Positions 808-48,435 of a DNA stretch of 64,000 nucleotides are shown here, in pieces. The notes beneath the pieces were generated by a model. It worked only from the letters and a program-made list of their open reading frames with translations. It ran no database searches and was not told where the DNA came from. The position numbers and the translations under genes are program-made. How positions within the stretch are numbered: position 1 is the first letter of the stretch; the number at the start of each line of letters is the position of its first letter. The DNA comes from Candidatus Caldarchaeales archaeon (lineage in GTDB: Archaea; Thermoproteota; Nitrososphaeria_A; Caldarchaeales; Wolframiiraptoraceae), in contig JBCNVN010000001.1 in NCBI GenBank assembly GCA_039630055.1, positions 1 to 64,000 on the forward strand. The letters run 5' to 3'.

Positions 808-1350
808 TTAACGTTTCTCTATAGGATAGAGTTTTGACTTTAAGATAGCTGTAAGTAGCAGGTTTCCCAGCAGTACAATCGCGATGAAGCTTCCGATGAA
901 TATAGATAGCCAGAATGCGGGTAAGCCTGGGAGAACGAATGAGTAGATATCATATCTTTCTGGAGAACCGAAGATAAACCATAGATATGTTCCAACTATA
1001 ATAGATACTATTATTGACTGTATGAGAGTACTGGTTAAGAAGAATTTACTGGTATGTTTTATGCAGATCTTCCAACCGACGTAGCAAGATACGAAGTTTG
1101 CTAGGGATCCGCCGATTACATCTATAAATGTCCAGCCTACGAAGAATACTTGTCCAGCGACAAAGTTAGATACTGCACATCCTATGGTTAGTCCGATGAT
1201 GGAGGGCCATCCAAAAAGGATGCTCAGAGGTATTAATGCATCTGCAAACCTAACCTGAAATGGTAAGAAGCTTATCAGGGCTAAAGCTATAACTAGTACA
1301 GCGTAGAGAGATGCGAACATCGATGCTAGAACTATGTTCTTCTTCATCAA
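808..1350 (-). CDS. queT: QueT-family transporter (ECF S-component-like, queuosine precursor)
   Basis: YAVLVIALALISFLPFQVRFADAL signature, IGLTIGCAVSN, multiple TM helices. Confidence 0.8.
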   Translation of the reverse strand: MMKKNIVLASMFASLYAVLVIALALISFLPFQVRFADALIPLSILFGWPSIIGLTIGCAVSNFVAGQVFFVGWTFIDVIGGSLANFVSCYVGWKICIKHTSKFFLTSTLIQSIIVSIIVGTYLWFIFGSPERYDIYSFVLPGLPAFWLSIFIGSFIAIVLLGNLLLTAILKSKLYPIEKR

Positions 1351-1508
1351 TACGGGTCTTTTGTTAATATGGAGGAGTTTCTAAAAAAGATTTAAGAACC
1401 TAGATAATTGATTATTGTAGGAAGAGTTGATTTTTCTAGGTCTATTCATCTCTAAGATGTTTATGATGGTTAAATCTATATTTAGCATGGTTTCATCTAT
1501 CTTGGAGG

Positions 1509-1880
1509 ATGTCAACAGTCCCAGATTCTTTACCTGAAGTTATAAGGATAAAGATATGGAGGTTTAGAGAAGATATGCTAAGAGGTGGAGATATAGTATC
1601 TGATGATTTTTTCTCAAGTTTGGGATTAGGTTTTAAGGAGAAGCTAATCGAGGCTGACGCCAAGTATGAAGAACATCTCAAGAAGATACATGATGAGTAT
1701 GGGTTGAGCATGAATGAAGAATATGTATGGACCCTTCCAGAACCTGCCATACTCACATTATCTAGAGATGAATTAGAGAAGGAATCTAAGATAGTATTAG
1801 ATGTATTGTTGAGGGGGCCGATAAATTTAAGATATTGTGACAAGCTTTATAGGCTAGTATTAGAGTATCCTTGTGGTTAA
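1509..1880 (+). CDS. Hypothetical soluble protein
   Basis: 123-aa ORF preceded by GGAGG; typical host codon usage. Confidence 0.7.
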   Translation: MSTVPDSLPEVIRIKIWRFREDMLRGGDIVSDDFFSSLGLGFKEKLIEADAKYEEHLKKIHDEYGLSMNEEYVWTLPEPAILTLSRDELEKESKIVLDVLLRGPINLRYCDKLYRLVLEYPCG

Positions 1881-1915
1881 AAGGATAAAAACTGGTATTG
1901 GATAAGATAGTTTAG

Positions 1916-2059
1916 GCGGGGGTAGCCAAGTCTGGTCAAAGGCGCAGGGCTTAGGAGGATTTGGAAGATAATAGACGGCTGGTTATTCCAAGGCTAAGAG
2001 ACCCTGAAGATTTTGGGGATTCCCATAGGGGTTCGTGGGTTCAAATCCCACCCCCCGCA
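1916..2059 (+). tRNA. tRNA-Leu(TAG) with two introns (1956-2000 at 37/38; 2007-2020 at 43/44)
   Basis: Acceptor stem GCGGGGG/CCCCCGC, anticodon arm CAGGG-CT-TAG-G|A-CCCTG, T-arm GTGGG-TTCAAAT-CCCAC; removing both inserts restores the standard variable arm TCCCATAGGGGTTC. Confidence 0.9.
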
Positions 2060-2875: not shown

Positions 2876-3697
2876 ATGGATCTCGCTATCATAGGTTTAG
2901 GAGCATTCGGTTCATGGCTCGTTCAACAATATCTCGATCTAGGCTTAAAGATTAAAGCGTATGACTTAGATTTGGAGAAAGCTACTAAATTTGAGCCTCT
3001 TGGGGTCACTATATGTAGAGATTTAGGAGAAGCTGTTAAAGATGTAGATGTAGTGATAATATCTGTAGCTTTAGGTAGTGCTCACCGCATAATAATGGAT
3101 GCGTCAAAAGATATGGAGAGGGGGATAATAGTAGATGTATCATCTCTTAAGAAGCCTGTTTACAGTACTTTGAAGAATCTTCCCAAAAGCTTGAAGCCTG
3201 TATGCATCCATCCTTTGTTCGGTCCATCTTCTAAAGGATTCGTGGGTAAGGTTGTGGCCCTCATACCTGTAAGAGATGTAGTAGAGGAATTAGATATTGC
3301 TGAGAAGATGATGCCGGGGGCAAGATTTGTAAGTGTAACGGCTGAAGAGCACGATGAGGCCATGGCATACATACTCTCACTAACCCATATACTATCTCTA
3401 GCAATAGTAGATTTGCTTAAAGATGTAGAAGAGAAAAAGTATGGAGAACTTTCTGGAACAAGTTTTAAACAAATGTGTAAGATGGTCGACCTAGTTCTCA
3501 GCGAGAGTAGAGAGACGCTCACATCAATAATCTACTATAATGAAGATACAGAAAAGATATTTAAGAGATTACTAGATAACCTCTATAAGATATATGAACT
3601 TATAATTGTGAAAGATTATGAAGGGTTAAAGAAATATATTGAAGAAACTAAGGAAAATTATTCTAAACTAGAATTCTTAAAAAAGATATTGTTATAA
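2876..3697 (+). CDS. tyrA: Prephenate/arogenate dehydrogenase
   Basis: GLGAFG Rossmann motif, DVSSLK, HPLFGP, EEHDEAMA. Confidence 0.9.
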   Translation: MDLAIIGLGAFGSWLVQQYLDLGLKIKAYDLDLEKATKFEPLGVTICRDLGEAVKDVDVVIISVALGSAHRIIMDASKDMERGIIVDVSSLKKPVYSTLKNLPKSLKPVCIHPLFGPSSKGFVGKVVALIPVRDVVEELDIAEKMMPGARFVSVTAEEHDEAMAYILSLTHILSLAIVDLLKDVEEKKYGELSGTSFKQMCKMVDLVLSESRETLTSIIYYNEDTEKIFKRLLDNLYKIYELIIVKDYEGLKKYIEETKENYSKLEFLKKILL

Positions 3698-3810
3698 GTT
3701 GTAGCTTTTTCCATCCTATTTAAACCATTAATGATTTTAGAAATATTGGAAAAATACTTCCTATCATCCATAGAGCTAAAAGATTTATTGTAGCCTGAAT
3801 AATTATCGTT

Positions 3811-4434
3811 ATGGATATTTATAGAATTGGAGACATAAAGTACTTGAAAGTTTCTTGGAAGCGTTTAGAAGAGATTGTAGAAGAACTTTCAAAGAAGATC
3901 TCTAGAGATTATGAGTTCGATCTTCTCGTAGGGATACTTAGGGGAGGTTTAGTCGTCGCCCATCTACTCTCAGATATAATGGGGATAGACGAGATCTATC
4001 CAATAGGATGCAGTAGCTATGTAGACGTATATAAACGCTCAAAGCTTAAGATATATCATCCTCTCATCTTAAATGACTTAAAGAAAAAAAGAGTACTAGT
4101 AGTAGATGATGTAGCAGATAGCGGTGTAACATTGAAGAGCATTATTGAAAAGGTTATAGCTCCGAAGAATCCAGAAGATTGTAAGACTGCAACTCTTCAT
4201 ATTAAACCTTGGAGCATCTTTAAGCCAGACTATTATGTTGAGATGGTGGATGCATGGATAGTCTATCCATGGGAGAAGTACGAGATGATAAGACTCCTTG
4301 GTCCAAAATTTATAGAGTTATTAGGAGAAGAGAAGGCGGTAACAGAGTTGGCAGAGATCATAGATAAAGATAGGAGTAAAGTGAGAGAGATACTTTTAGC
4401 TGTAAGCTCTACAAGTAACACCACGGTTTCCTAA
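3811..4434 (+). CDS. Purine phosphoribosyltransferase (type I PRTase)
   Basis: GILRGG, VLVVDDVADSGVTL PRPP loop, WIVYPWE. Confidence 0.9.
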   Translation: MDIYRIGDIKYLKVSWKRLEEIVEELSKKISRDYEFDLLVGILRGGLVVAHLLSDIMGIDEIYPIGCSSYVDVYKRSKLKIYHPLILNDLKKKRVLVVDDVADSGVTLKSIIEKVIAPKNPEDCKTATLHIKPWSIFKPDYYVEMVDAWIVYPWEKYEMIRLLGPKFIELLGEEKAVTELAEIIDKDRSKVREILLAVSSTSNTTVS

Positions 4435-4555
4435 TCCATAATAATCATTAGATGTAAATAGTACATATAGAGGGATATCTTGCAATCTAAGAGGTATAAG
4501 AAAAAGAGATAGATTGTGAGATCTAAATAGTGAGGTTTCTGAGAATATTTATCAA

Positions 4556-5902
4556 TTGAGAGATTGGGTTTTAGGGTGGGGTCTAGAGATGGGGCATGGA
4601 GGCCTAAGGCTTTACGCTGAGATATATGGATGTACAGCGAGTCTAGCCGATGGAGAGATAGCTCTAGGATTATTTAATGAGGCTGGCTGGAAGATCGTGA
4701 ATAGACCGGATGATGCAGACCTTATCCTACTAGTAACATGCGCTGTTAAGAAGCCTACTAGTGATAGAATGCTTCACAGAATTAAGAAGTTAAAAACCTA
4801 TGGAAAGAAGATGGTGATAACTGGATGTATGGCCTCTGGAGAGGGAGAGAGAATAAAACACGTGGCACCTGATTCTATACTAGTTCATCCTAGATCTATT
4901 TTACGAATAGTAGAGGCAGTCGAAAAGGAGATAGACTTGATGGATGAAGATCTTGTGGAGAAGCTTGATCAACCAAGAGTTTTAAAGAATAAGGTTGTTG
5001 GGATAGTTCCAGTCTCGGAGGGATGTAGATGGAGTAGGTGTGGATTCTGCATAGTTCCATTCACTCGAGGCAGATTCTTTAGCTACCAGATGGATAAGAT
5101 AATTGAAGAAGCATATAGATTGATCTCTAGAGGCGTTAAAGAGATATGGCTTACAAGTCAAGATATGGGTAGCTATGGACTAGATCAAGGGAGAAACCTT
5201 CTACCAGAGCTGGTGAGAAAAATATCTATGATTCCTGGAGAATTCTGGATAAGGATCGGTATGATGAACCCCATATACTTGAAGCCAATACTCCGAGATC
5301 TAAGTGAAGTATATCTCCATCCAAAAGTCTACAAATTCTTACATCTCCCAGTCCAGACAGGGTCGGATAAGATACTGAGATTGATGGATAGAGGATACAC
5401 CATCTCATTATTTAAAGAGATAGTATACTTCATGAAGAGTAAAATAGATAGACTCAATCTCTCAACAGATATTATCGTAGGTTATCCTGGAGAAGATGAG
5501 GAAGACTTCGAGGATACTTTAAGACTGCTGAGAGAGGTGGAACCAGACTCTGTAAATATCTCAAAGTTTTTTCCGAGACCTAGAACACCTGCAGAGAAGC
5601 TTACACAATTAGATCCAAAGATAATTAAAGAAAGGAGTAGGATCATCACTAATTTAGCTTCGAGTATTGCATATAAGAAGAATCTTAGATGGATTGGATG
5701 GGTAGGGACTGCGCTGGTAGATGAAGTAGGAGAGCGTGGAGAGGCGATCGCTAGAAACATAGAGTATAAACCAATAGTATTGAGGGGGGAGAATGGATCA
5801 ACTCTTCTCGGTAAGTGGGTGGAGGTAGAGGTTTTAGATGCTAGACCCCACTGTCTAACCGGTAGATTGAAGAAGGTCTTAGATGAAGATGACAGCATAT
5901 AA
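4556..5902 (+). CDS. MiaB-like tRNA methylthiotransferase (archaeal e-MtaB type); true start probably near 4589
   Basis: UPF0004 cysteines (YGC, VTC, TGC), radical-SAM cysteine triad, HLPVQTGSD, DIIVGYPGE, C-terminal TRAM-like domain. Confidence 0.9.
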   Translation: MRDWVLGWGLEMGHGGLRLYAEIYGCTASLADGEIALGLFNEAGWKIVNRPDDADLILLVTCAVKKPTSDRMLHRIKKLKTYGKKMVITGCMASGEGERIKHVAPDSILVHPRSILRIVEAVEKEIDLMDEDLVEKLDQPRVLKNKVVGIVPVSEGCRWSRCGFCIVPFTRGRFFSYQMDKIIEEAYRLISRGVKEIWLTSQDMGSYGLDQGRNLLPELVRKISMIPGEFWIRIGMMNPIYLKPILRDLSEVYLHPKVYKFLHLPVQTGSDKILRLMDRGYTISLFKEIVYFMKSKIDRLNLSTDIIVGYPGEDEEDFEDTLRLLREVEPDSVNISKFFPRPRTPAEKLTQLDPKIIKERSRIITNLASSIAYKKNLRWIGWVGTALVDEVGERGEAIARNIEYKPIVLRGENGSTLLGKWVEVEVLDARPHCLTGRLKKVLDEDDSI

Positions 5903-17277: not shown

Positions 17278-18037
17278 GGTCTTCTCCTATGATAAATCCT
17301 TGGGGAACCTCTGTTATCCCTGGATAGGCTCTCTTCAATATCTCCAACCTCAATACTTCATCTACTCTACCTATAGCATATATCTTCTTGTTTAGTAGGA
17401 TTACTAGTGGATTGTATGCTATGCACGGGCTTATCTCGTGGGCCACGAGAAGGATGTCGACCCCCATCCTAGAGTGAATTCTACTAAGTAGACCCGCTAT
17501 CTCACATTTTATATCGAAGTCTAACATCGAGAATGGTTCATCTAAGAGGAGGAGCCTAGCCCCTCTCACCATCGCTCTCGCTATAAGTACCCTCTGTCTC
17601 TCACCACCACTTAGCTCTGAGAATAATCTTTCAGAGTATCCTTCTAGCTCAACAAGCCTTAGAGCATCTTCAACCTCTTCTTCAATCTTTCTATTGAATA
17701 TCCTAGGAGGAACGGATTTACTAATGATGCCCATAGAGATGACTTCTCTAACGGTTACTGGAACATGTAGATTTATATTTACGATCTGTGGAACGTAGCC
17801 TACGAACCGCCTAATCTTATTATATTCTCTAACGGAGTCATAGCCATACACTTTGACCATTCCTGAACTGGGTTTTATCATACCGATTATACACTTGAGT
17901 AAAGTTGTCTTGCCGGCTCCATTCGGCCCCATAACCACCGTCAGAAAAGGCGAGTCCAACTTAAATGAAATATTATCCAGTGCCTTCAAACCATCAAACG
18001 TTACGGTTAAGCCGTCTACTGTCAATTCACCTACCAA
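17270..18037 (-). CDS. Zn/Mn ABC transporter ATPase (ZnuC-like)
   Basis: GPNGAGKTT, GYVPQ, LSGGERQR, LLLDEP. Confidence 0.92.
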   Translation of the reverse strand: MVGELTVDGLTVTFDGLKALDNISFKLDSPFLTVVMGPNGAGKTTLLKCIIGMIKPSSGMVKVYGYDSVREYNKIRRFVGYVPQIVNINLHVPVTVREVISMGIISKSVPPRIFNRKIEEEVEDALRLVELEGYSERLFSELSGGERQRVLIARAMVRGARLLLLDEPFSMLDFDIKCEIAGLLSRIHSRMGVDILLVAHEISPCIAYNPLVILLNKKIYAIGRVDEVLRLEILKRAYPGITEVPQGFIIGEDHA

Positions 18038-19085
18038 TTCTCCTCAACCTGATTATCAAGAAGATGACCATCACGGTCAAGACTATGTTAACTATGATAG
18101 AAAGCCATAGTAGGGTGAATGGGTCGATTAGCGGGACATTCGAATAGGTAGAGGTAGGTGATTGAGATGATATTAGAACTGATGCTGATAGAGAGATTAG
18201 TTCAGGGGTATCATAGAAGATGGCAACAGGCACAACGACATATCGTAGGTTCTCTCTTCTGAGTAGATCGATTAGCTTCTGATTCTTCACGGCTTCCTCA
18301 TCGGTGAATATAACAAGATCTGCATCTCCATTTTTCAATCTTGTAAACATGTTCGAGATATCTCTCTCGGATGGTTCTATATCATGTTCACTTACGACGA
18401 TATCAACCTGCTCAAGTCCTAAATCGTTGATAAGGTACTGGAGGATCGGAGAGTATATGATAACTCTGTAATGCTTATCCAACGTGGCTCTAATCTTCTT
18501 CTCCAAACTATCGATGCTTTCCAAATACTTCGACAGTCTTCCACGATAATATTCTGAATAATCTCTATCGATCTCAGCGAGGCTGGATGCGACTGTAGAG
18601 GCTATGGCCCTCAATCCACTTATTGAGTAATAGTAACCATGTGGATTGAGATCGTTCGTCTTCGGATTTACTAGCTGTTTCAACCCATTATCTACATAGT
18701 CTCCATATCCTACTAATTTAACCCTTAAAAGTCCCTCTTCAACCAACTCGTAGATTTTTTCTTCAACTATTAGGTGGTGCCGACCACTCACAACCAGCAA
18801 TCTTGCTTGAGACAACTTTTCTATAAGCGTACCTGTAGGAGGCTCATAATCATGTGGGTCAACATTAGGCGGTATAATCGTTATGACATCTACTCTCTCT
18901 CCACCTATCTCTCTAACTACGGAGGCTATAGGTTCTACCACCGTAACAACCGTTATCTTGCCGACTTCAGCCTCATCAATTCCAAGAGATACAGATGAAC
19001 CTTTTAAGATAGATATGAGGAAAAGTGGTATTATTAATATTGAGAGATGTCGATGTCTGTTATCTTTCTTCAAGAAGTGTTCCAT
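18027..19085 (-). CDS. Zn/Mn ABC substrate-binding protein (cluster A-I) with C-terminal TM anchor
   Basis: DPHDYEP and NPHGYY metal-binding His motifs, signal peptide, C-terminal hydrophobic helix. Confidence 0.88.
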   Translation of the reverse strand: MEHFLKKDNRHRHLSILIIPLFLISILKGSSVSLGIDEAEVGKITVVTVVEPIASVVREIGGERVDVITIIPPNVDPHDYEPPTGTLIEKLSQARLLVVSGRHHLIVEEKIYELVEEGLLRVKLVGYGDYVDNGLKQLVNPKTNDLNPHGYYYSISGLRAIASTVASSLAEIDRDYSEYYRGRLSKYLESIDSLEKKIRATLDKHYRVIIYSPILQYLINDLGLEQVDIVVSEHDIEPSERDISNMFTRLKNGDADLVIFTDEEAVKNQKLIDLLRRENLRYVVVPVAIFYDTPELISLSASVLISSQSPTSTYSNVPLIDPFTLLWLSIIVNIVLTVMVIFLIIRLRRIGR

Positions 19086-41160: not shown

Positions 41161-42246
41161 ATGAGTAGAGACAAGGAGACAAAGATCTTCGAGGTTGATA
41201 CATTAAATATTAACATGGATTATATTAGTGAGGCTGCTGAAGTGATTAGGGATGGAGGCTTGGTTGTCTTCCCCACCGAGACTGTCTATGGGCTTGGAGC
41301 AGATGCGTTGAATCGAGAAGCTGTAAGAAAAGTATACGAGGTTAAGAAGAGACCATTAGATAATCCATTGATAGTACATATATCAAATATGGGTCAACTA
41401 GATAATGTCATATCTAGGATCCATGTAGGAGAAGAAGTCTACAAAATTATGGAGAGGTTCTGGCCTGGTCCTTTAACCCTTATACTTCCAAAATCAAGAG
41501 AATTACCTTATGAGGTGACGGCCGGCCATCAAGTAGTTGCGGTTAGAATGCCTGCCCATCCAGTAGCTTTGAACCTAATAGAATTGAGCAGGACCCCGAT
41601 AGTAGGTCCCAGCGCTAATCCAGCCGGTAGACCATCCCCTACTAGTGGAGAACACGTTAAGAAAGATATGATGGGAAAAGTGGATGTGATAATAGATGCG
41701 GGAGAGACACTATATGGTGTTGAGTCAACGATAATAGACTTGACAAGGGATCCTCCGATGCTTCTTAGACCTGGAGCGATCCCAGTAGAAGAGGTTGAGA
41801 AATATATTCAGAAGAGGGTGGATGTGCCGGATTTTGCTAGAGGACTGGTAAAAGTATCTGAGGCAATATCTCCTGGGATGAAGTATAGACATTATGCACC
41901 TATTACACCTTTAATTGTTATTGAGGCTGGAGATTATTCTAATCTGGAGACCTATTGTAGGAAGATTCAGGAGTATGTTAGAGATTTGAAGAGCTCTGGA
42001 AAGAAGATTGTAATATTGGCCTCGAGAGAGACTAGAGAACTCTATGAAAATATTGATGTACTGGTTTTAGGTTCTAGAAGTAATCTTTTTGAAGTTGCTA
42101 AGAACCTCTTCTCAACCCTGAGGATTATCGATGAGCTTAAAGTAGATTTGGCCGTATCTGAAGGATTTGAAGAGAGAGGGTTAGGATTGACTATAATGAA
42201 TAGGTTACGGAAAGCAAGCGGATACAATATCATAAAGATACCGTGA
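41161..42246 (+). CDS. sua5: Threonylcarbamoyl-AMP synthase (Sua5)
   Basis: FPTETVYGLG, KKRPLDNPLIVH, FWPGPLT, PSAN, SPGMKYRHYAP. Confidence 0.96.
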   Translation: MSRDKETKIFEVDTLNINMDYISEAAEVIRDGGLVVFPTETVYGLGADALNREAVRKVYEVKKRPLDNPLIVHISNMGQLDNVISRIHVGEEVYKIMERFWPGPLTLILPKSRELPYEVTAGHQVVAVRMPAHPVALNLIELSRTPIVGPSANPAGRPSPTSGEHVKKDMMGKVDVIIDAGETLYGVESTIIDLTRDPPMLLRPGAIPVEEVEKYIQKRVDVPDFARGLVKVSEAISPGMKYRHYAPITPLIVIEAGDYSNLETYCRKIQEYVRDLKSSGKKIVILASRETRELYENIDVLVLGSRSNLFEVAKNLFSTLRIIDELKVDLAVSEGFEERGLGLTIMNRLRKASGYNIIKIP

Positions 42247-42477
42247 CTTTCTGAATTATCCATCGTATAGAGTTTAGGGAGTTATCATGGATCATCTTCA
42301 TAAAGTTCTAAGAGGAGATCAGCATCACGTCGTTCTTTGAACACACATACTACATAAACGATTATCAATTATCATGTAGATATGTAAGAGTATGAAGATG
42401 TCAAAGGTTGGAGGAAGCATATATAAATGCTAGGAAATTGAATATAGGAAGATGAAGTTCTTCTACTCTTCTCATTG

Positions 42478-42588
42478 ATGTATGTTATCGCTGTCGCTCC
42501 CAGTAATCCTTTAGTGCCAGTATTCTCAATGATGCTCTTGATTGTAATATTACTGCTGCTCTACTCTATCTACACCATTAGAAGGTGA
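42478..42588 (+). CDS. Small hydrophobic peptide (36 aa) directly upstream of the LAGLIDADG gene
   Basis: MYVIAVAPSNPLVPVFSMMLLIVILLLLYSIYTIRR*; its stop sits in AGGTGA, a ribosome-binding site for the next gene. Confidence 0.45.
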   Translation: MYVIAVAPSNPLVPVFSMMLLIVILLLLYSIYTIRR

Positions 42589-42592
42589 TATA

Positions 42593-43696
42593 TTGAATAG
42601 TGAAAACAAATTGTTCTCGAGATCTTCTTTAGAAGATCAACTGAGAGTTTATAGATACGTCATGGAAAAAAAGACTGAGAGTGCTAAAAACCTCGCCCAA
42701 CAGATTCGAGAAAAATTCCATGTGAGTATACACCCTGACACCATAAAGCGTTGGAAAAAGAGGGGTTCTCGTTTTGACTTCTTGATCGATTACCTAGAAA
42801 CTCCAATATTAGAAATATCGTACTTCACCCTCAGAGACGAGGCAATCAAATTACATAACGTATTCGGCTACGTATTGATAAGCAAGATACTTCATATGAA
42901 GTATGGCATTAGAATCAGTCCCCCAACAATAAATGGGTGGTTGCGGGGTAAAAAGCCCAGAACAACTAATCTCTCACCATCTCCCGAACTCGCTGTAGTA
43001 GCTGCTGCCGTTGTAGGAGACGGTTGTATAACTACTAGTAAACATTTGCGTCCCAAACCTTATGTACAAAAAAAGATAGAATTGTCCATGAAAGACATTG
43101 AACCAGTATTGATGGTAAGAGACTGTCTACTTAAAATTTGCAAATATAATTATATAATTAGTGAAAAACAGGGAAGGTATTGGATTGCTTGTCATAGAAA
43201 GGATCTCGTAGATTATCTAAGTAATAGAGACAACATTCTCAATCTATTGCGATCTTTTCCTATAGAATTTATGAGAATGTTATTTGAGTGTGATGGTCAT
43301 GTTTCTGCTAGTATTTCCACAGTAAACGATAAAGGAAAAATTAAAAAAGTCTTTGATGTAAAAATATGTCTAACGAACTCGGACAAAGAACTTTTAGAGG
43401 AGGTTCAAAAACAACTAGAAAAGTTAGGGATTCGTTCAAAGATATATTTATCCACAAAAGCTGGAACCCCACTAATAATGCCCAACAACTCTAGGATTTA
43501 TATAAGGAAGAAAGATATATACAGATTGTCCATACAGGAGAAATTGTCAATAATGAAATTCTCTACAATAAACTTTATTACTAGAAGAAAAAGACAGAAA
43601 CTGGAAAATATAATCAACATTCTCCAGAAATGCTCAGAGACAGAGGCTGTAGATGAATGGATTAAACTTGTAGCTGAATATATGAAGGGCGAATAG
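42593..43696 (+). mobile_element. Free-standing LAGLIDADG (intein-type DOD) endonuclease with two N-terminal HTH-like repeats
   Basis: LAVVAAAVVGDG and FMRMLFECDG motifs, LTNSDKELLEEVQKQLEKLGI, tandem HPDTIKRW / SPPTINGW helices; no intein splicing residues; A-rich composition unlike the flanks. Confidence 0.85.
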
Positions 43697-43727
43697 CCCC
43701 CTCCCCTCTCTTTATTTTTATTCTTCT

Positions 43728-43784
43728 CTAGGCTAATATAAAATTTTCAAGTCTTGTAATTGGATCTATTACTACTTCTCTCAA
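43728..43784 (-). pseudogene. mvhA: Truncated [NiFe] hydrogenase large subunit, first 13 codons only
   Basis: TTG start a few nt after the mvhG stop, preceded by GAGGGGTGA; reads MREVVIDPITRLE then NFILA*; group 3 large subunits begin IDPxTRxEGH. Confidence 0.85.
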
Positions 43785-43789
43785 TTATC

Positions 43790-44770
43790 TCACCCCTCAA
43801 CCATCTTTATCTTTCCACGTAGCCGTGAGGCGGCTAACGTATATCTATAGAATGTACCCATGAAGTCTGAAAAGTTGTTTAGAGCCTTCTCAATTTCTTC
43901 TTCATTATAGTGGTCTAGGATGCTTGCAAAGTATGATGCTGCCTTACCACCATAGTCTATTACTTCGTCAAGTGGGCCGAAGCATCCTGTACAAGGCATG
44001 GCAGCCTTGACACATAGTGCTCCACATCCTCCACGAGTAACTGGGCCTAAACATGCTAATCCTTGGACTAGAAGACATTTCTCAGGGTCGACGACTATTT
44101 CATGGGGTCTCTTGACCTCCTTTATTAAAACCTTCTCAGGCTTTGTCTCATTTAGAGGACAGTCATAGCATAGGGATCTTTCAGATGCTCCTAGAACAGA
44201 ACCTTTAGCTGGAAGGTTTCCTGATAGAAGAGCCTCGATAGCCTTCCATGTAACTTCGGGGGTTGGAGGGCATCCTGGAATATAGTAATCCACATCTATT
44301 ACTAGGTCTAATGGTAAGAGTCTTGGAAAGAACTCGGGTAGCTTAAGATTTATTCCCTCCTCTAATCTTACATTTGTCATAGGTGTTCTCTTTTCAGAGT
44401 TGCTAATGGTTGGAGCCTCATGATATACATAATTAAATATGTCTTCTTTACTGTATAGGTTGGCTAGACCTGGAACGCCTCCCCAAGATGAACATGCACC
44501 ATAAGCTACAACTATCTTGGACTTTTTCCTTAATAGTTTTACAACTTCTTCATGTTCCTCTAATCTTATCCCACCATTTATGAAGCTGACAGTTATAGAT
44601 TTATCTGGAAGGTTCTCAACATCCTTAACCTTAAAGTCTAGTGCCACCGGCCAGAATACTATATCTACCAAGCTTACTAAGTCTAGGATCTTCTCTGCCA
44701 AGTCTACTACAGATTCTTCACATCCACCACAGCTAGCACACCAGTAGAGAGCAACCTTAGGCTTCTCCAA
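43790..44770 (-). CDS. mvhG: Group 3c [NiFe] hydrogenase small subunit
   Basis: CASCGGCE, GACS, IPGCPP, distal CYDC / CLGPVT / CGALC / CTGC. Confidence 0.92.
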   Translation of the reverse strand: MEKPKVALYWCASCGGCEESVVDLAEKILDLVSLVDIVFWPVALDFKVKDVENLPDKSITVSFINGGIRLEEHEEVVKLLRKKSKIVVAYGACSSWGGVPGLANLYSKEDIFNYVYHEAPTISNSEKRTPMTNVRLEEGINLKLPEFFPRLLPLDLVIDVDYYIPGCPPTPEVTWKAIEALLSGNLPAKGSVLGASERSLCYDCPLNETKPEKVLIKEVKRPHEIVVDPEKCLLVQGLACLGPVTRGGCGALCVKAAMPCTGCFGPLDEVIDYGGKAASYFASILDHYNEEEIEKALNNFSDFMGTFYRYTLAASRLRGKIKMVEG

Positions 44771-45188
44771 CTCTCACCTCACCTTCAACCCTCAAAGGTC
44801 CCAAAGCTTTTATCTCCCTATACATTTCTTGAGCTACTCTAACAAATTTCTCTGCTTCTGAAGCAGATATCCATTCAAGCCTAAACCTCTCCTTCTCTAT
44901 CCCAAAACTCTCAAGCATCTTCTTCAGCAAAGTCATTCTCCTCAATGCTTTATAATTTCCTTCTATATAATGGCAGTCTCCTGGATGGCATCCAGCAACT
45001 AGTACTCCATCAGCACCCCGACTGAAAGCCTCCAAGATAAACTGAGGGTCGACTCTACCTGAACACATAACTTTTATAACTAAAAAGTTTGGAGGATACT
45101 TCATCCTACTCGTTCCAGCTAGGTCAAGCGCAGCATATGAGCACCAGTTACATGCAAAAACGATTATCCTAGGTTCAAAATTCTCCAA
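44757..45188 (-). CDS. mvhD: [2Fe-2S] subunit MvhD
   Basis: CNWCSY, MCSGRV, GCHPGDCHY, WISASE. Confidence 0.95.
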   Translation of the reverse strand: MENFEPRIIVFACNWCSYAALDLAGTSRMKYPPNFLVIKVMCSGRVDPQFILEAFSRGADGVLVAGCHPGDCHYIEGNYKALRRMTLLKKMLESFGIEKERFRLEWISASEAEKFVRVAQEMYREIKALGPLRVEGEVRVGEA

Positions 45189-45194
45189 AACTGA

Positions 45195-47162
45195 TCACCT
45201 CGCTAAGGCTGCTAAGAGCTGAGCCTTAAGCTGGGTATCTTTAAAGCTGAATTGCTGCATAGCACCACTTGGGCATGCGGCTACACAAACTCCACATCCC
45301 TTACATAGAGAAGCATCAACCTTCGCCGACCTCACCCGGTCTATAACCTCTAAACTTATAGCGGTATATGGGCACACACCTATACATATAGAGCATCCGC
45401 TACAAATACTTTTATTGACTACTGCTATCGTAGGCTCTACTATAACTTCTTCCTTGGATAGGAGTGTTACAGCCTTAGAAGCAGCCGCACTACCTGAAGC
45501 AATACTTTCAATAATGTTTTTAGGTCCTGTAACTGCTCCAGCTAAGTAGACTCCATCTGTAGTTGCCTCAACAGGTCTAAGCTTTAGATGTGCTTCTTTA
45601 AGGAAGCCTTCTGGTCCACATCCAACTTTAAGGATTGTTCTGACCTTATCTATACCTTCTGGAGGCTTCATCCCTACAACTAATACTACCAAGTCTGCAG
45701 GTATAGTCACTTCTTCATTTATCGTTTCTTCAAAGAAGCTTACATATATCTCACCATCAGGTTTAACCGTCACCCTTGGAGATTCTTTAAATCTTGCGAA
45801 TCTTATAAAGTGCTCACCGGCTTTTAAGTATAATTGTTCATCTCCTCTACCATACGTTCTAATATCTTTATGGAGTATGTAGATATCCGTATCCGGATAT
45901 GCTTCTCTGATCATTAATGCATTCTTTATAGTTGAGGAGCAACACATCCTCGAGCAGTGTGAGTAAGCATTAGGGGTTGTGTTTAGTGAGCCTACACACA
46001 TTATGAAGACTATCTTCTTAGGCTTAAACCCATCTACTACCAGTTCTCCATTTGTGGGACCATCTCGGACGAGCAATCTCTCAAGCTGGAACAATGTTGT
46101 GATCCTATTGGATAGCTTATACCCATACTCACCTATAGGAGGTTCATAAGGGTCGTAGCCTGCTGCCACGACTACTGCTCCAACATCTAGGTCTATCTCT
46201 TCAAATCTTTCCTCTAAGTTTATTGCGGCTGTGGGACATACCTCTACGCATTTACCACATCTAGTACAGTTCTGCATATCTATAACGTATAGCTTTGGAT
46301 ACGCATCTTTAAACGGTAGGTATATTGCTTTTCTTCTAGATATTCCAAACTCGTATTCATTCGGAACTTCTACAGGGCATATCTTACTGCACTCATCACA
46401 TAGAATACATCTCTCATTAACATACCTAGGCTTCTTCGCTAGCTTTACCTTGAAGTTTCCAACGGATCCATCTACTCCTATCAACTCTGTATTTACGTAT
46501 ATGTTGATGTTCGGGTCTCCAGCAACCTTCTGGATAAGCTCTCTAGCTATATCAGAGCCTTTCAGTTCTGTATAAGGTAATCTTCCAAGCCTAGCCACTC
46601 TTCCACCAAGAATAGGTGCTCTCTCGACCAAGTGAACTTTGAAACCTTTCCCAGCTAGGTCTTGAGCAGCAGCTAATCCTGAAACACCTCCACCGATGAC
46701 TAGCACGCTTCTATCTACCTTAAACTTTATATCTTCTAAAGGTTCTAGCAGAGATGCTTTAGCTACAGCCATTCTAATAAGGATCTTAACTTTCTCCGTA
46801 GCCCTCTCTTTAGTATCTGAATGTGGCCATGAACATAGTTCCCTTATATTCGCCATCTCTAGAACGTATGGATTTAGCCCAGCTTCAGCTAAGGTCGACC
46901 TAAAAGTATGTTCATGCATTGTTGGAGAACATGCAGCTACGACAACCCTGTTTAAACCATGCTTCTTAACGCTTTCCTTGATCAATTCTTGTCCAGGAGC
47001 TGAGCACATGAATAGGTAATCTCTTACCTCTACAACATTTGGTAGATTCTTAACATAATCAACTACTTCTTTAATGTTTACTACGCCTGCAATATTTGCT
47101 CCGCAGTGGCATACGTATACTCCGATTCTAGGCTCTTCACCCATGCTATACACCTCCAGCAA
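45195..47162 (-). CDS. HdrA-like flavoprotein, QmoB-type (MvhD domain encoded separately)
   Basis: CHCG N-domain, GGGVSG, inserted and C-terminal ferredoxin domains, CSRMCC; lacks the FPTxDC cysteine. Confidence 0.88.
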   Translation of the reverse strand: MLEVYSMGEEPRIGVYVCHCGANIAGVVNIKEVVDYVKNLPNVVEVRDYLFMCSAPGQELIKESVKKHGLNRVVVAACSPTMHEHTFRSTLAEAGLNPYVLEMANIRELCSWPHSDTKERATEKVKILIRMAVAKASLLEPLEDIKFKVDRSVLVIGGGVSGLAAAQDLAGKGFKVHLVERAPILGGRVARLGRLPYTELKGSDIARELIQKVAGDPNINIYVNTELIGVDGSVGNFKVKLAKKPRYVNERCILCDECSKICPVEVPNEYEFGISRRKAIYLPFKDAYPKLYVIDMQNCTRCGKCVEVCPTAAINLEERFEEIDLDVGAVVVAAGYDPYEPPIGEYGYKLSNRITTLFQLERLLVRDGPTNGELVVDGFKPKKIVFIMCVGSLNTTPNAYSHCSRMCCSSTIKNALMIREAYPDTDIYILHKDIRTYGRGDEQLYLKAGEHFIRFARFKESPRVTVKPDGEIYVSFFEETINEEVTIPADLVVLVVGMKPPEGIDKVRTILKVGCGPEGFLKEAHLKLRPVEATTDGVYLAGAVTGPKNIIESIASGSAAASKAVTLLSKEEVIVEPTIAVVNKSICSGCSICIGVCPYTAISLEVIDRVRSAKVDASLCKGCGVCVAACPSGAMQQFSFKDTQLKAQLLAALAR

Positions 47163-48435
47163 TTATAGATGCTTTGATAGCTGCAGAGTCGGCTTGGACC
47201 ACTGAGTCGGGTATATCTTTAGCTCCAGCAGCTACTCCTACAACATATATCCCTTTTATATTTGTTGAGGTTGGGTCTAGGTAAGGATTCTCTAAACGTA
47301 TGTATCCATCTTCGCTCAATGTTATAGGTAGAGCGGTTGGATAGTTCGGCTTAACCCCTAAAGCTAATACAACCATTTCAGCTCTCATAGTCTTCTTAAT
47401 CCCAGTGAAAGTATCTTCATAAGTAATCATAAGGTCTTTAGTCTTAGGGTCTTCCTCGATCTTCGCAGGCTTACTCCTAACGAAGTTTATCTTAAATTCC
47501 TCTCTAGCTCTGTTGTAGAATTCTTGGTATCCTTTTCCGAACGCTCTCATATCCATGTAGAATATTGTGCACTCAACATCCGGCAAGTGTTCTTTCGCAA
47601 GTATTGCATGTTTAATGGAGGCAGTACAGCAGAAGGCTGAGCAGTTTGGATTTATCTTAACATCTCTGGAACATATGCATTGTATAAATGCAATACTCTT
47701 CGGATGCTTTTTATCCGACCTCCTCACGACCTCTCCACCTGTTGGACCTGTTGCAGACACCAGTCTTTCAAATTCTAAAGATGTGTAAACGTTTGCATAT
47801 TTTCCATAACCGTAGAGTGGCTGTAGCTTGGGATCCATGAGTTCATATCCAGTAGCAATAATAATGGATGCAACGTTAAGCTCTATCGTTTGAGGCTGTT
47901 GCTCAAAGTCTACTGCTCTCGTTGGGCAGACCCTCTCACATACTCTACAAATCCCTTTAGTAAAGTAGAAGCAATAGTCTCTATCTATTGTTGCTTTTAG
48001 AGGGACTGCTTGAGGGAAGAGGAAATATATCGCTCTTCTATTGCTCATCCCTAGATTAAACTCGTCTGGAACTTTAGATGGACACTTAGACATACAAACT
48101 CCGCATCCAATACATTTATCTTCGATAACGTATCTAGGCTTCTTCAGGATCCTTACATTAAAGTCTCCTACTCCTCCTTTAACATCTAATACTTCTGAAT
48201 ACGTTAAGAGCTTTATCATTGGATGTCTTGCAACGGAGACCATCTTAGGCGTAAGTATGCATGAAGAGCAGTCTAATGTTGGAAATGTTTTATCGAGTTG
48301 AGCCATTTTACCACCAATACTCGGAGCCTTCTCGACCAGATACACTGGGATTCCGTGATCACCGAGATCCAAAGCTGCTTGGATACCAGCGATCCCTCCA
48401 CCAATAACCAATACAGGCTTAGGCAAGCGCGCCAC
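47146..48435 (-). CDS. Short HdrA-like flavoprotein, QmoA-type
   Basis: 429 aa starting directly at the FAD fold (GGGIAG), FPTLDC, inserted ferredoxin, CSAFCC; no N- or C-terminal extra domains. Confidence 0.88.
   Translation of the reverse strand: MARLPKPVLVIGGGIAGIQAALDLGDHGIPVYLVEKAPSIGGKMAQLDKTFPTLDCSSCILTPKMVSVARHPMIKLLTYSEVLDVKGGVGDFNVRILKKPRYVIEDKCIGCGVCMSKCPSKVPDEFNLGMSNRRAIYFLFPQAVPLKATIDRDYCFYFTKGICRVCERVCPTRAVDFEQQPQTIELNVASIIIATGYELMDPKLQPLYGYGKYANVYTSLEFERLVSATGPTGGEVVRRSDKKHPKSIAFIQCICSRDVKINPNCSAFCCTASIKHAILAKEHLPDVECTIFYMDMRAFGKGYQEFYNRAREEFKINFVRSKPAKIEEDPKTKDLMITYEDTFTGIKKTMRAEMVVLALGVKPNYPTALPITLSEDGYIRLENPYLDPTSTNIKGIYVVGVAAGAKDIPDSVVQADSAAIKASIIAGGV

Follow-up and report, generated by a model that had tools for sequence, protein, structure and literature searches.

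We analyzed the window, the first 64 kb of a 228,745-nt contig (C1) from a metagenome-assembled genome (MAG; 80 contigs, 91.9% complete) of a Candidatus Caldarchaeales archaeon, in which mvhA, the gene for the large subunit of a [NiFe]-hydrogenase, breaks off between codons 13 and 14, at RLE/GH, next to a gene for a LAGLIDADG protein. This genome is called G000 here, with contigs C1, C21 and so on, and the genomes of its relatives G001 to G007. In the main population mvhA is intact, and the cut gene is at most a minority variant; the first observation of a truncated gene is correct for the contig and misleading for the organism. The explanation that we favor, with some confidence and well short of certainty, is that the contig follows a low-abundance path of the metagenome graph, and that a mobile cassette carrying the LAGLIDADG gene would be joined to mvhA at RLE/GH in a minority of cells, at a site-specific break.

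Truncated and intact forms of mvhA

The truncated frame of mvhA (43728–43784, minus strand) starts with TTG at 43784. Its 13 genuine codons (43784–43746) encode MREVVIDPITRLE; five codons of foreign sequence (NFILA) come next, and the frame stops at 43728, so that the correct start and the end of homology at 43746 described in the initial annotation were both borne out. The intact site reads ...ACAAGACTTGAA up to the break point and GGACATGG... beyond it. Orthologs of mvhG, the gene for the hydrogenase small subunit, are found in 19 of the 76 genomes of the class, and RLE runs on into GHGK in 17 of these 19 loci, the exceptions being the window contig and G006; the break does lie in a conserved motif, as had been proposed. 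The annotated intactness of mvhG (43790–44770, minus strand; Oxidored_q6, E 4.1e-25) and mvhD (44757–45188, minus strand; FlpD, E 1.5e-58) was confirmed by matches over the full length of the Pfam models. Full-length coverage was also obtained for the Sua5/TsaC gene (41161–42246, plus strand; Sua5_yciO_yrdC, E 1.7e-63, plus Sua5_C), which forms the left chromosomal flank. The stop of the LAGLIDADG gene lies 49 nt from the mvhA break at 43746, and the two genes are convergent. That this gene is free-standing also held: no intron, tRNA or tRNA fragment was detected in 42200–43900 (Rfam at E up to 10; ARAGORN), and no intein context was seen around it, a point on which no separate intein test was made.

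The rest of mvhA had been reported as not visible. This is true of C1, on which a whole-genome search with Pfam PF00374 found no second [NiFe] large-subunit match, but not of the assembly: C21 carries an intact mvhA of 487 codons at its end (17453–18916, minus strand), with hycI downstream. The search proposed for an N-terminally truncated large subunit found this complete protein instead. The C21 MvhA starts with LREVVIDPITRLEGHGK and matches NiFeSe_Hases with an E value of 1.4e-35. RxEGH, RxCGxC and DPCxxC are the motifs that mark a [NiFe] large subunit; the C21 copy has both N-terminal motifs (RLEGH at residue 11 and RICGVC at 59), the C-terminal one (DPCHAC at 452) and an adjacent gene for the maturation protease HycI. 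An annotation based on C1 alone would give the operon no catalytic subunit and deny the organism the use of H2 via Mvh; metabolic readings should use C21.

The relation between the two contigs is visible in the ends of the assembly. The last 77 nt of C21 are identical (100%) to window positions 43746–43822, which is the sole BLAST match of the C21 tail on C1. When the first and last 77 nt of all contigs (160 ends) were scanned, 27 had exact matches elsewhere in the assembly, indicating that the assembler used k = 77. A second vertex of this kind lies at 42470–42546, where an exact 77-mer is common to the start of C77; from there the path leads onward either into the LAGLIDADG segment or via C77 to C20, the end of C77 being an exact 77-mer match to C20 804–880. 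The two vertices frame positions 42547–43745, and this segment of 1,199 nt is therefore one of two exits from the Sua5 side and one of two entries to the mvhG side.

Depth was taken from Logan contigs of two public runs, X1 and X2, which come from the same study and are possibly the MAG's own source. In X1, a 5,544-nt contig of depth 10.2 runs from 43746 leftwards into C21 sequence, and a contig of depth 14.2 does the same in X2. The LAGLIDADG segment has a depth of 3.1–4.35 in X1 and 5.34 in X2, so the intact path from mvhG to mvhA is 2–3 times deeper. Around the left vertex, the summed Logan depth over 42406–42607 is 42–78, and in the conserved 5' region of the cassette it reaches 70–78, versus 10–23 in the flanks; an exact unitig begins at 42367, and X2 has a loose end at 42554 that matches C77. 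The suggested check for alternative junctions at 43746 thus succeeded for the intact form, which the Logan contigs follow, but left the junction itself uncovered: Logan contigs end at 43539 and 43580, and the gap from 43581 to 43745 is neutral either way. As a separate observation, mvhG carries a second strain in X2 (44036–44675; about seven single-base differences at about 40% of the depth), which indicates at least two coexisting strains.

Synteny agrees with depth. In G005, the closest relative, C18 1–20000 is collinear with all of C21 and continues into mvhG, and mvhG, mvhA and the C21 genes also stand in one row in G003 and G002. G005 C52 is collinear with C1 39434–42240, up to Sua5, and then with C20 1939–8162; there, the genes after Sua5 are tRNA-Asp and a MobA-like gene, which are both on C20 in the present genome. 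Sua5 and mvhG are on separate contigs in all five relatives checked. The contig's order of Sua5 and cassette contradicts this synteny as judged from the assembled sequences, and the link between them crosses a multi-copy repeat common to at least three cassettes (C1, C77 and the end of C8). Because the intact path is the deeper one and synteny supports it, we take the intact operon to be the main form and the segment to be a minority. The implied loss of mvhA by the organism is accordingly not borne out, given the intact C21 copy, the 77-nt overlap and the deeper form in two runs.

The breakpoint in a sister species

The second exception among the 19 loci is G006, from another species of the genus (MvhG 79% identical). 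Its contig C74 reads MREAVINPIRRLE and then passes into foreign sequence, at the same base as the window break to within 1 nt. When both cut alleles were compared with the 17 intact orthologs, divergence set in right after ...CTTGAA. A search for MvhA in G006 found nothing in this MAG, which is 84% complete and in 210 contigs. The G006 sequence to the left of the break consists of 370 nt of unique DNA, preceded in turn by the end of a MoeA gene.

By our own arithmetic, the chance that two random breaks in a gene of 1.46 kb fall within 1 nt of each other is about 0.2%; the site is therefore likely to be special and the junction probably real. The same breakpoint in a sister species without mvhA is our reason for reading the window junction as real, and comparison of the sequences suggests that it is probably a site-specific minority allele. 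From the k = 77 graph of the MAG and the analogy with G006, we infer that the junction would exist in real DNA molecules of the population. A nuclease would then be the presumptive origin of the break, and the recurrent breakpoint keeps a site-specific nuclease alive as a reading at modest odds.

Elsewhere in G006 (C3, 24000–34000), an orphan hycI stands without mvhA beside genes for GH1, an MFS transporter and GH4, counterparts of which are absent from G000. Both this island of sugar genes and the spacer next to the break are unlike anything in the G000 or G007 loci. An inverted match of 9–13 nt near the G006 hycI was judged too weak to consider.

The cassette and its family

The gene beside the break (42593–43696, plus strand), which we call LAGLIDADG-1, encodes a single chain of 367 aa with two motifs and a winged helix-turn-helix (wHTH) part. 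It matches Pfam LAGLIDADG_3 with an E value of 9.9e-15 (55 bits against a cut-off of 22.5); the helix-turn-helix match is weak. In the first motif, G142-D143-G144 is invariant in 13 aligned family members. In the second, LAGLIDADG-1 has D234 where at least 90% of the 13 members have E, followed by an invariant G235. A comparison with the PI-PfuI endonuclease (1dq3) gave a weak match (E 0.026). By profile and motifs, LAGLIDADG-1 is a predicted two-motif homing endonuclease. Homing is possible, in that orthologous tRNA-Asp sites are filled or empty depending on the relative and the family is multi-copy in G001; site-specific cleavage is predicted. Searching 5.8 billion proteins with LAGLIDADG-1 returned its own protein only, and a scan of JGI metagenomes gave 198 pattern matches with no relatives among them; a further scan with a 30-nt pattern from the cassette tail gave no match.

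The gene is the core of a cassette with conserved ends. Upstream lies a conserved, multi-copy 5' region (42367–42592, plus strand, start approximate), which holds a hydrophobic open reading frame (ORF) of 36 codons at 42478–42588. Positions 42470–42589 are 92.5% identical to C77 1–120, and further copies of this repeat are present at the end of C8 and at C19 1400–1538. The family thus couples a multi-copy conserved non-coding part, present on C1, C77, C8 and C19, to a divergent ORF of about 0.8–1.1 kb. Where the cassette begins on the Sua5 side could not be defined, as G005 has no conserved counterpart of the intergenic DNA. Downstream, the 3' tail (43697–43745, plus strand) is first C-rich and then A/T-rich, ending in ...ATATAAAATT. 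Paralogs of LAGLIDADG-1 on C20, C31 and C47 are 25–30% identical to it, with values of 28–30% in one of the comparisons.

Across the class, the family profile is present in 47 of the 76 genomes. Genomes of the genus have 2 to 29 matches each, many of them at contig ends. In G001, the 17 copies that we fetched of a repeat of about 1.07 kb share 72–88% nucleotide identity, and a paralog there matches LAGLIDADG_3 with an E value of 1.4e-16. The 3' tail of the G001 unit is C-rich, continues with TTCTTCTC and becomes A/T-rich, ending in ...AAAATTA.... The tail in the window, at 49 nt, is similar in build and length to those in G001 (42–72 nt from GCCC to the end). This match to the family places the mvhA junction where a cassette naturally ends.

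In G001, the tails abut tRNA genes or, once, a MarC gene, and in 6 of the 17 copies the tail runs into tRNA-like sequence, judged by eye from the T-arm motif. Of 23 loci, 15 have a tRNA no more than about 110 nt from the ORF 3' end, nearly always convergent with the ORF; these comprise 2 of 4 loci in the present genome, 7 of 10 in relatives of the genus and, among other families, 6 of 9 in genomes that are nearly closed. Cassettes of the family are usually placed so that their 3' end abuts that of a tRNA gene. The site between Sua5 and tRNA-Asp is empty in G005, filled in G000 (C20) and G003, and looks filled, by eye, in G001. On C77 and C20, the tRNA-Asp cassette ends properly at the tRNA. 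The window copy does not share this tRNA adjacency, given the absence of any tRNA or fragment in 42200–43900, nor does it fall into the class hosted by introns or inteins: it has no intron family, and its left flank is Sua5 and not one half of mvhA. Titles of public records with family members include Caldarchaeales genera, Nitrososphaerales, Bathyarchaeota, Thermococcus, Methanocaldococcus and Archaeoglobaceae.

Protein genes are also affected. Within G001 C55 12000–19000, a cassette of 1,066 nt (3531–4600, minus strand) lies inside a MarC-family gene on the same strand, with MarC profile positions 4–57 on one side, 57–202 on the other and ACTA flanks on both sides. This gene is probably simply split by the cassette. 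Group I and group II introns were rejected for this copy, as Rfam gave chance-level matches only, and so was a bulge-helix-bulge intron, since the duplex fold pairs exon with intron. No ortholog that would represent an empty MarC site was found in G000, G002, G003, G005, G006 or G007. On G001 C9 (1–4500), an ORF of the Lyase_1 family (aspartase/fumarase type; 1159–2052, minus strand) follows its profile only to position 254 of 312. About 80 nt lie between its end and the 3' terminus of a cassette in convergent orientation. It is seemingly a second protein gene cut beside a cassette; no remainder of it was found in G001.

The upstream module is not confined to LAGLIDADG genes. At C8 29812–31354 and C37 509–1375, cassettes that share the 5' repeat, together with a small ORF (about 90 aa), carry an ORF of about 300 aa, of an unassigned family, in place of LAGLIDADG; the module seems to travel with varied cargo. 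A GC-rich repeat (50–54% GC, versus 39% in the genome) lies upstream of a second LAGLIDADG gene, LAGLIDADG-2, and at contig ends (C9 29328–30027, C20 1–700, C37 1–155 and, outside the window, C1 228639–228745), with similar GC-rich pieces in G003 and G002. It matches no Rfam family and may be the 545-bp region 'a' of a 2012 Caldiarchaeum paper discussed below, or a structured RNA. Copies of the cassette break or tangle many contigs in G000 and G001. We regard wHTH-LAGLIDADG cassettes as a widespread cause of strain variation and broken assemblies in the class, and one on which little has been written.

The idea of an endonuclease-borne element targeting hydrogenase genes thus stands as to the kind of element, because LAGLIDADG-1 is the free-standing core of a mobile cassette family, but not as to the target, given 15 of 23 loci at tRNA genes. 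The survey of homolog sites that had been called for led to tRNA genes and showed no association with hydrogenases: among 118 cassette-bearing loci (455 kb), none had MvhA-like sequence or a PI[TR]RLE site.

Among the other genes of the window, hdrA (45195–47162) and an hdrA-like gene (47146–48435) follow mvhD, both on the minus strand.

Explanations of the junction and known systems

The arrangement that we favor can be set out as follows. In the main population, mvhG leads into the 487-codon mvhA and hycI (C21), and Sua5 into a cassette, tRNA-Asp and the MobA-like gene (C77 and C20). The segment 42547–43745, about 1.2 kb, is a copy of the mobile cassette, consisting of the hydrophobic ORF, the wHTH-LAGLIDADG gene and the tail, and in a minority of cells its 3' terminus would be joined to mvhA between codons 13 and 14. 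The link to Sua5 runs through the 5' repeat; either the assembler crossed over there from one cassette copy to another, or the two copies may truly have been rearranged. The DNA coding for RxEGH would most likely have suffered a double-strand cut by LAGLIDADG-1 or a similar endonuclease. Such a cut might be repaired by insertion of a cassette, in which case the Sua5 link would be an assembler cross-over, or by a join to a different locus. Loss of the gene body in G006 would have followed inactivation.

Several observations weigh against this explanation. The junction 43745/43746 is not spanned by any Logan contig of X1, X2 or X3, and the first two of these runs share one study that may be the source of the MAG. 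The reciprocal junction, in which a cassette 5' end would meet mvhA at codon 14, is not in the MAG. In G006, no LAGLIDADG gene lies within 776 nt left of the break, and the best relative of LAGLIDADG-1, only 33% identical, is on another contig; the G006 MAG is fragmented, so that its mvhA may be unbinned and its junction a minority path. The absence of hydrogenase sequence from all 118 cassette-bearing loci counts on the same side. The mvhA site does not convincingly resemble the tRNA flanks at which the family is usually found; its comparison with tRNA T-loops and the MarC site gave only partial matches, and the idea of a likeness was dropped.

A stronger form of the proposal is that LAGLIDADG-1 or a like nuclease targets RxEGH-coding DNA, or has a strong off-target there, and repeatedly knocks out mvhA in hot-spring Caldarchaeales; the cut allele would make up about a quarter to a third of one species and be fixed in the sister species, where the gene body was then lost. 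We put this forward as a doubtful proposition with a small chance of being right. In that case a selfish endonuclease would, in nature, be eliminating a core gene of energy metabolism, and if the endonuclease does cut RxEGH-coding DNA, selfish nucleases would be tied to the loss of hydrogenases in natural populations.

The explanation to be taken most seriously beside the favored one, unlikely as we consider it, is that the junction is purely an artefact. The cassette would end at a tRNA or other DNA, a chimeric read or a wrong low-depth edge of the graph would have created the join, and no cell would have a cut mvhA. The low depth of the segment (3–5, versus 10–23) fits such an error, as do its position between two graph branches, its demonstrably ambiguous left link, the lack of Logan contigs over 43581–43745, the presence of the LAGLIDADG-1 protein on a single contig only and the general tangling of contigs by cassettes in G000 and G001. 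However, both sides of the junction are unique. Apart from the C21 tail, no k-mer of at least 16 nt in 43690–43830 recurs in the MAG, which leaves a misjoin driven by a repeat unexplained, no short repeat of this length having been found for it. The break also falls where the cassette tail would naturally end, and the same base is the break point in an independent MAG from another species, a coincidence with the small chance calculated above.

It is improbable that the whole order of Sua5, cassette, truncated mvhA and mvhG is real in a minority strain, through an inversion or translocation with breakpoints at the cassette/tRNA-Asp boundary and in mvhA. This is how the contig was assembled, and G006 likewise joins truncated mvhA to an unrelated locus, that of MoeA. 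By our reasoning, an inversion would cost no essential gene if the loci are in opposite orientation; as cells could survive an inversion, we rejected the notion that the contig order is necessarily a lethal deletion. For a simple deletion between Sua5 and mvhG to be viable, the two loci would have to lie so that all essential genes are spared, because C20 and C21 carry ORFs read, from their sequence, as genes for ribosomal proteins and the mevalonate pathway. An inversion or translocation would resemble the recombination between copies of a multi-copy element proposed for Caldiarchaeum, in a natural population of which the halves of a locus are reported to be separated by more than 500 kb (Sugahara et al. 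2012, PLoS One 7:e32504; PMC3293823). On the other side, the link between Sua5 and the cassette lies in the repeat common to at least three cassettes and is without weight, the tRNA-Asp site is already held by another cassette (C77/C20), and the missing reciprocal junction counts here as well.

A programmed, reversible interruption of the gene, or an endonuclease family dedicated to hydrogenase genes, is very improbable: the break at the most conserved N-terminal motif and the occurrence of intact and cut forms in one population would suit either, but there is no recombinase gene, flanking direct repeat or second mvhA half beside the segment, the left flank is Sua5 and not mvhA, 15 of 23 family loci are at tRNA genes and none of the 118 cassette-bearing loci holds hydrogenase sequence, and in G006 the gene body is gone, not displaced. 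The reversible excision raised in the initial annotation is accordingly not supported. The visible part of the segment lacks the features of an excised or integrative element, and no contig starts at the right edge of the putative core.

The favored reading, a cassette joined to mvhA in a minority of cells, can be set beside several known systems. In heterocyst-forming cyanobacteria, hupL is interrupted by an element that is excised by XisC. The likeness is that DNA molecules with an interrupted [NiFe] large-subunit gene and molecules with a whole one exist side by side. The present case differs in that no recombinase is visible, there are no direct repeats and the second half is not adjacent; moreover, the cut form is the minority and, in G006, is tied to loss of the gene. 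With endonucleases of the I-DmoI type and PI-PfuI, LAGLIDADG-1 has in common a single-chain, two-motif core and an acidic residue at the end of both motifs, whereas it has no intron family match and carries extra N-terminal winged-helix repeats. SegB, encoded in the tRNA cluster of phage T4, is a free-standing homing endonuclease gene; the cassettes resemble nucleases of this type as lone genes by tRNA genes, in multiple copies, at sites that are filled or empty depending on the relative. By contrast, the window cassette abuts a protein gene, and no left-over tRNA fragment was found in the genus. A full-text literature search for wHTH-LAGLIDADG cassettes at archaeal tRNA genes returned nothing among the texts that it covers.

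The closest likeness by description is to the insertion sequence of 1,868 bp found at a tRNA gene of Caldiarchaeum subterraneum (PMC3293823). The element consists of 'a', a non-coding repeat of 545 bp in six copies, and 'b', an ORF of 813 bp with seven paralogs that are alike at the protein level only; ORF 'b' was predicted to bind or recombine DNA, and an origin from a plasmid-type integrase was favored. The same paper reports heterogeneity among cells of a natural hot-spring population and proposes recombination between copies for the separated locus halves. LAGLIDADG and homing endonucleases are not mentioned in the paper (0 occurrences), which reports neither an insertion in a protein gene nor a link to hydrogenases. 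Compared with the 'a-b' element so described, our cassettes have ORFs of 270–370 aa that are about 30% identical, with conserved upstream repeats, and they too stand beside tRNA genes, vary among strains and tangle assemblies; one family member is in a MAG titled Ca. Caldarchaeum subterraneum. Judged by description, the "transposable element" left without a name in the 2012 Caldiarchaeum study seems to be a cassette of this family.

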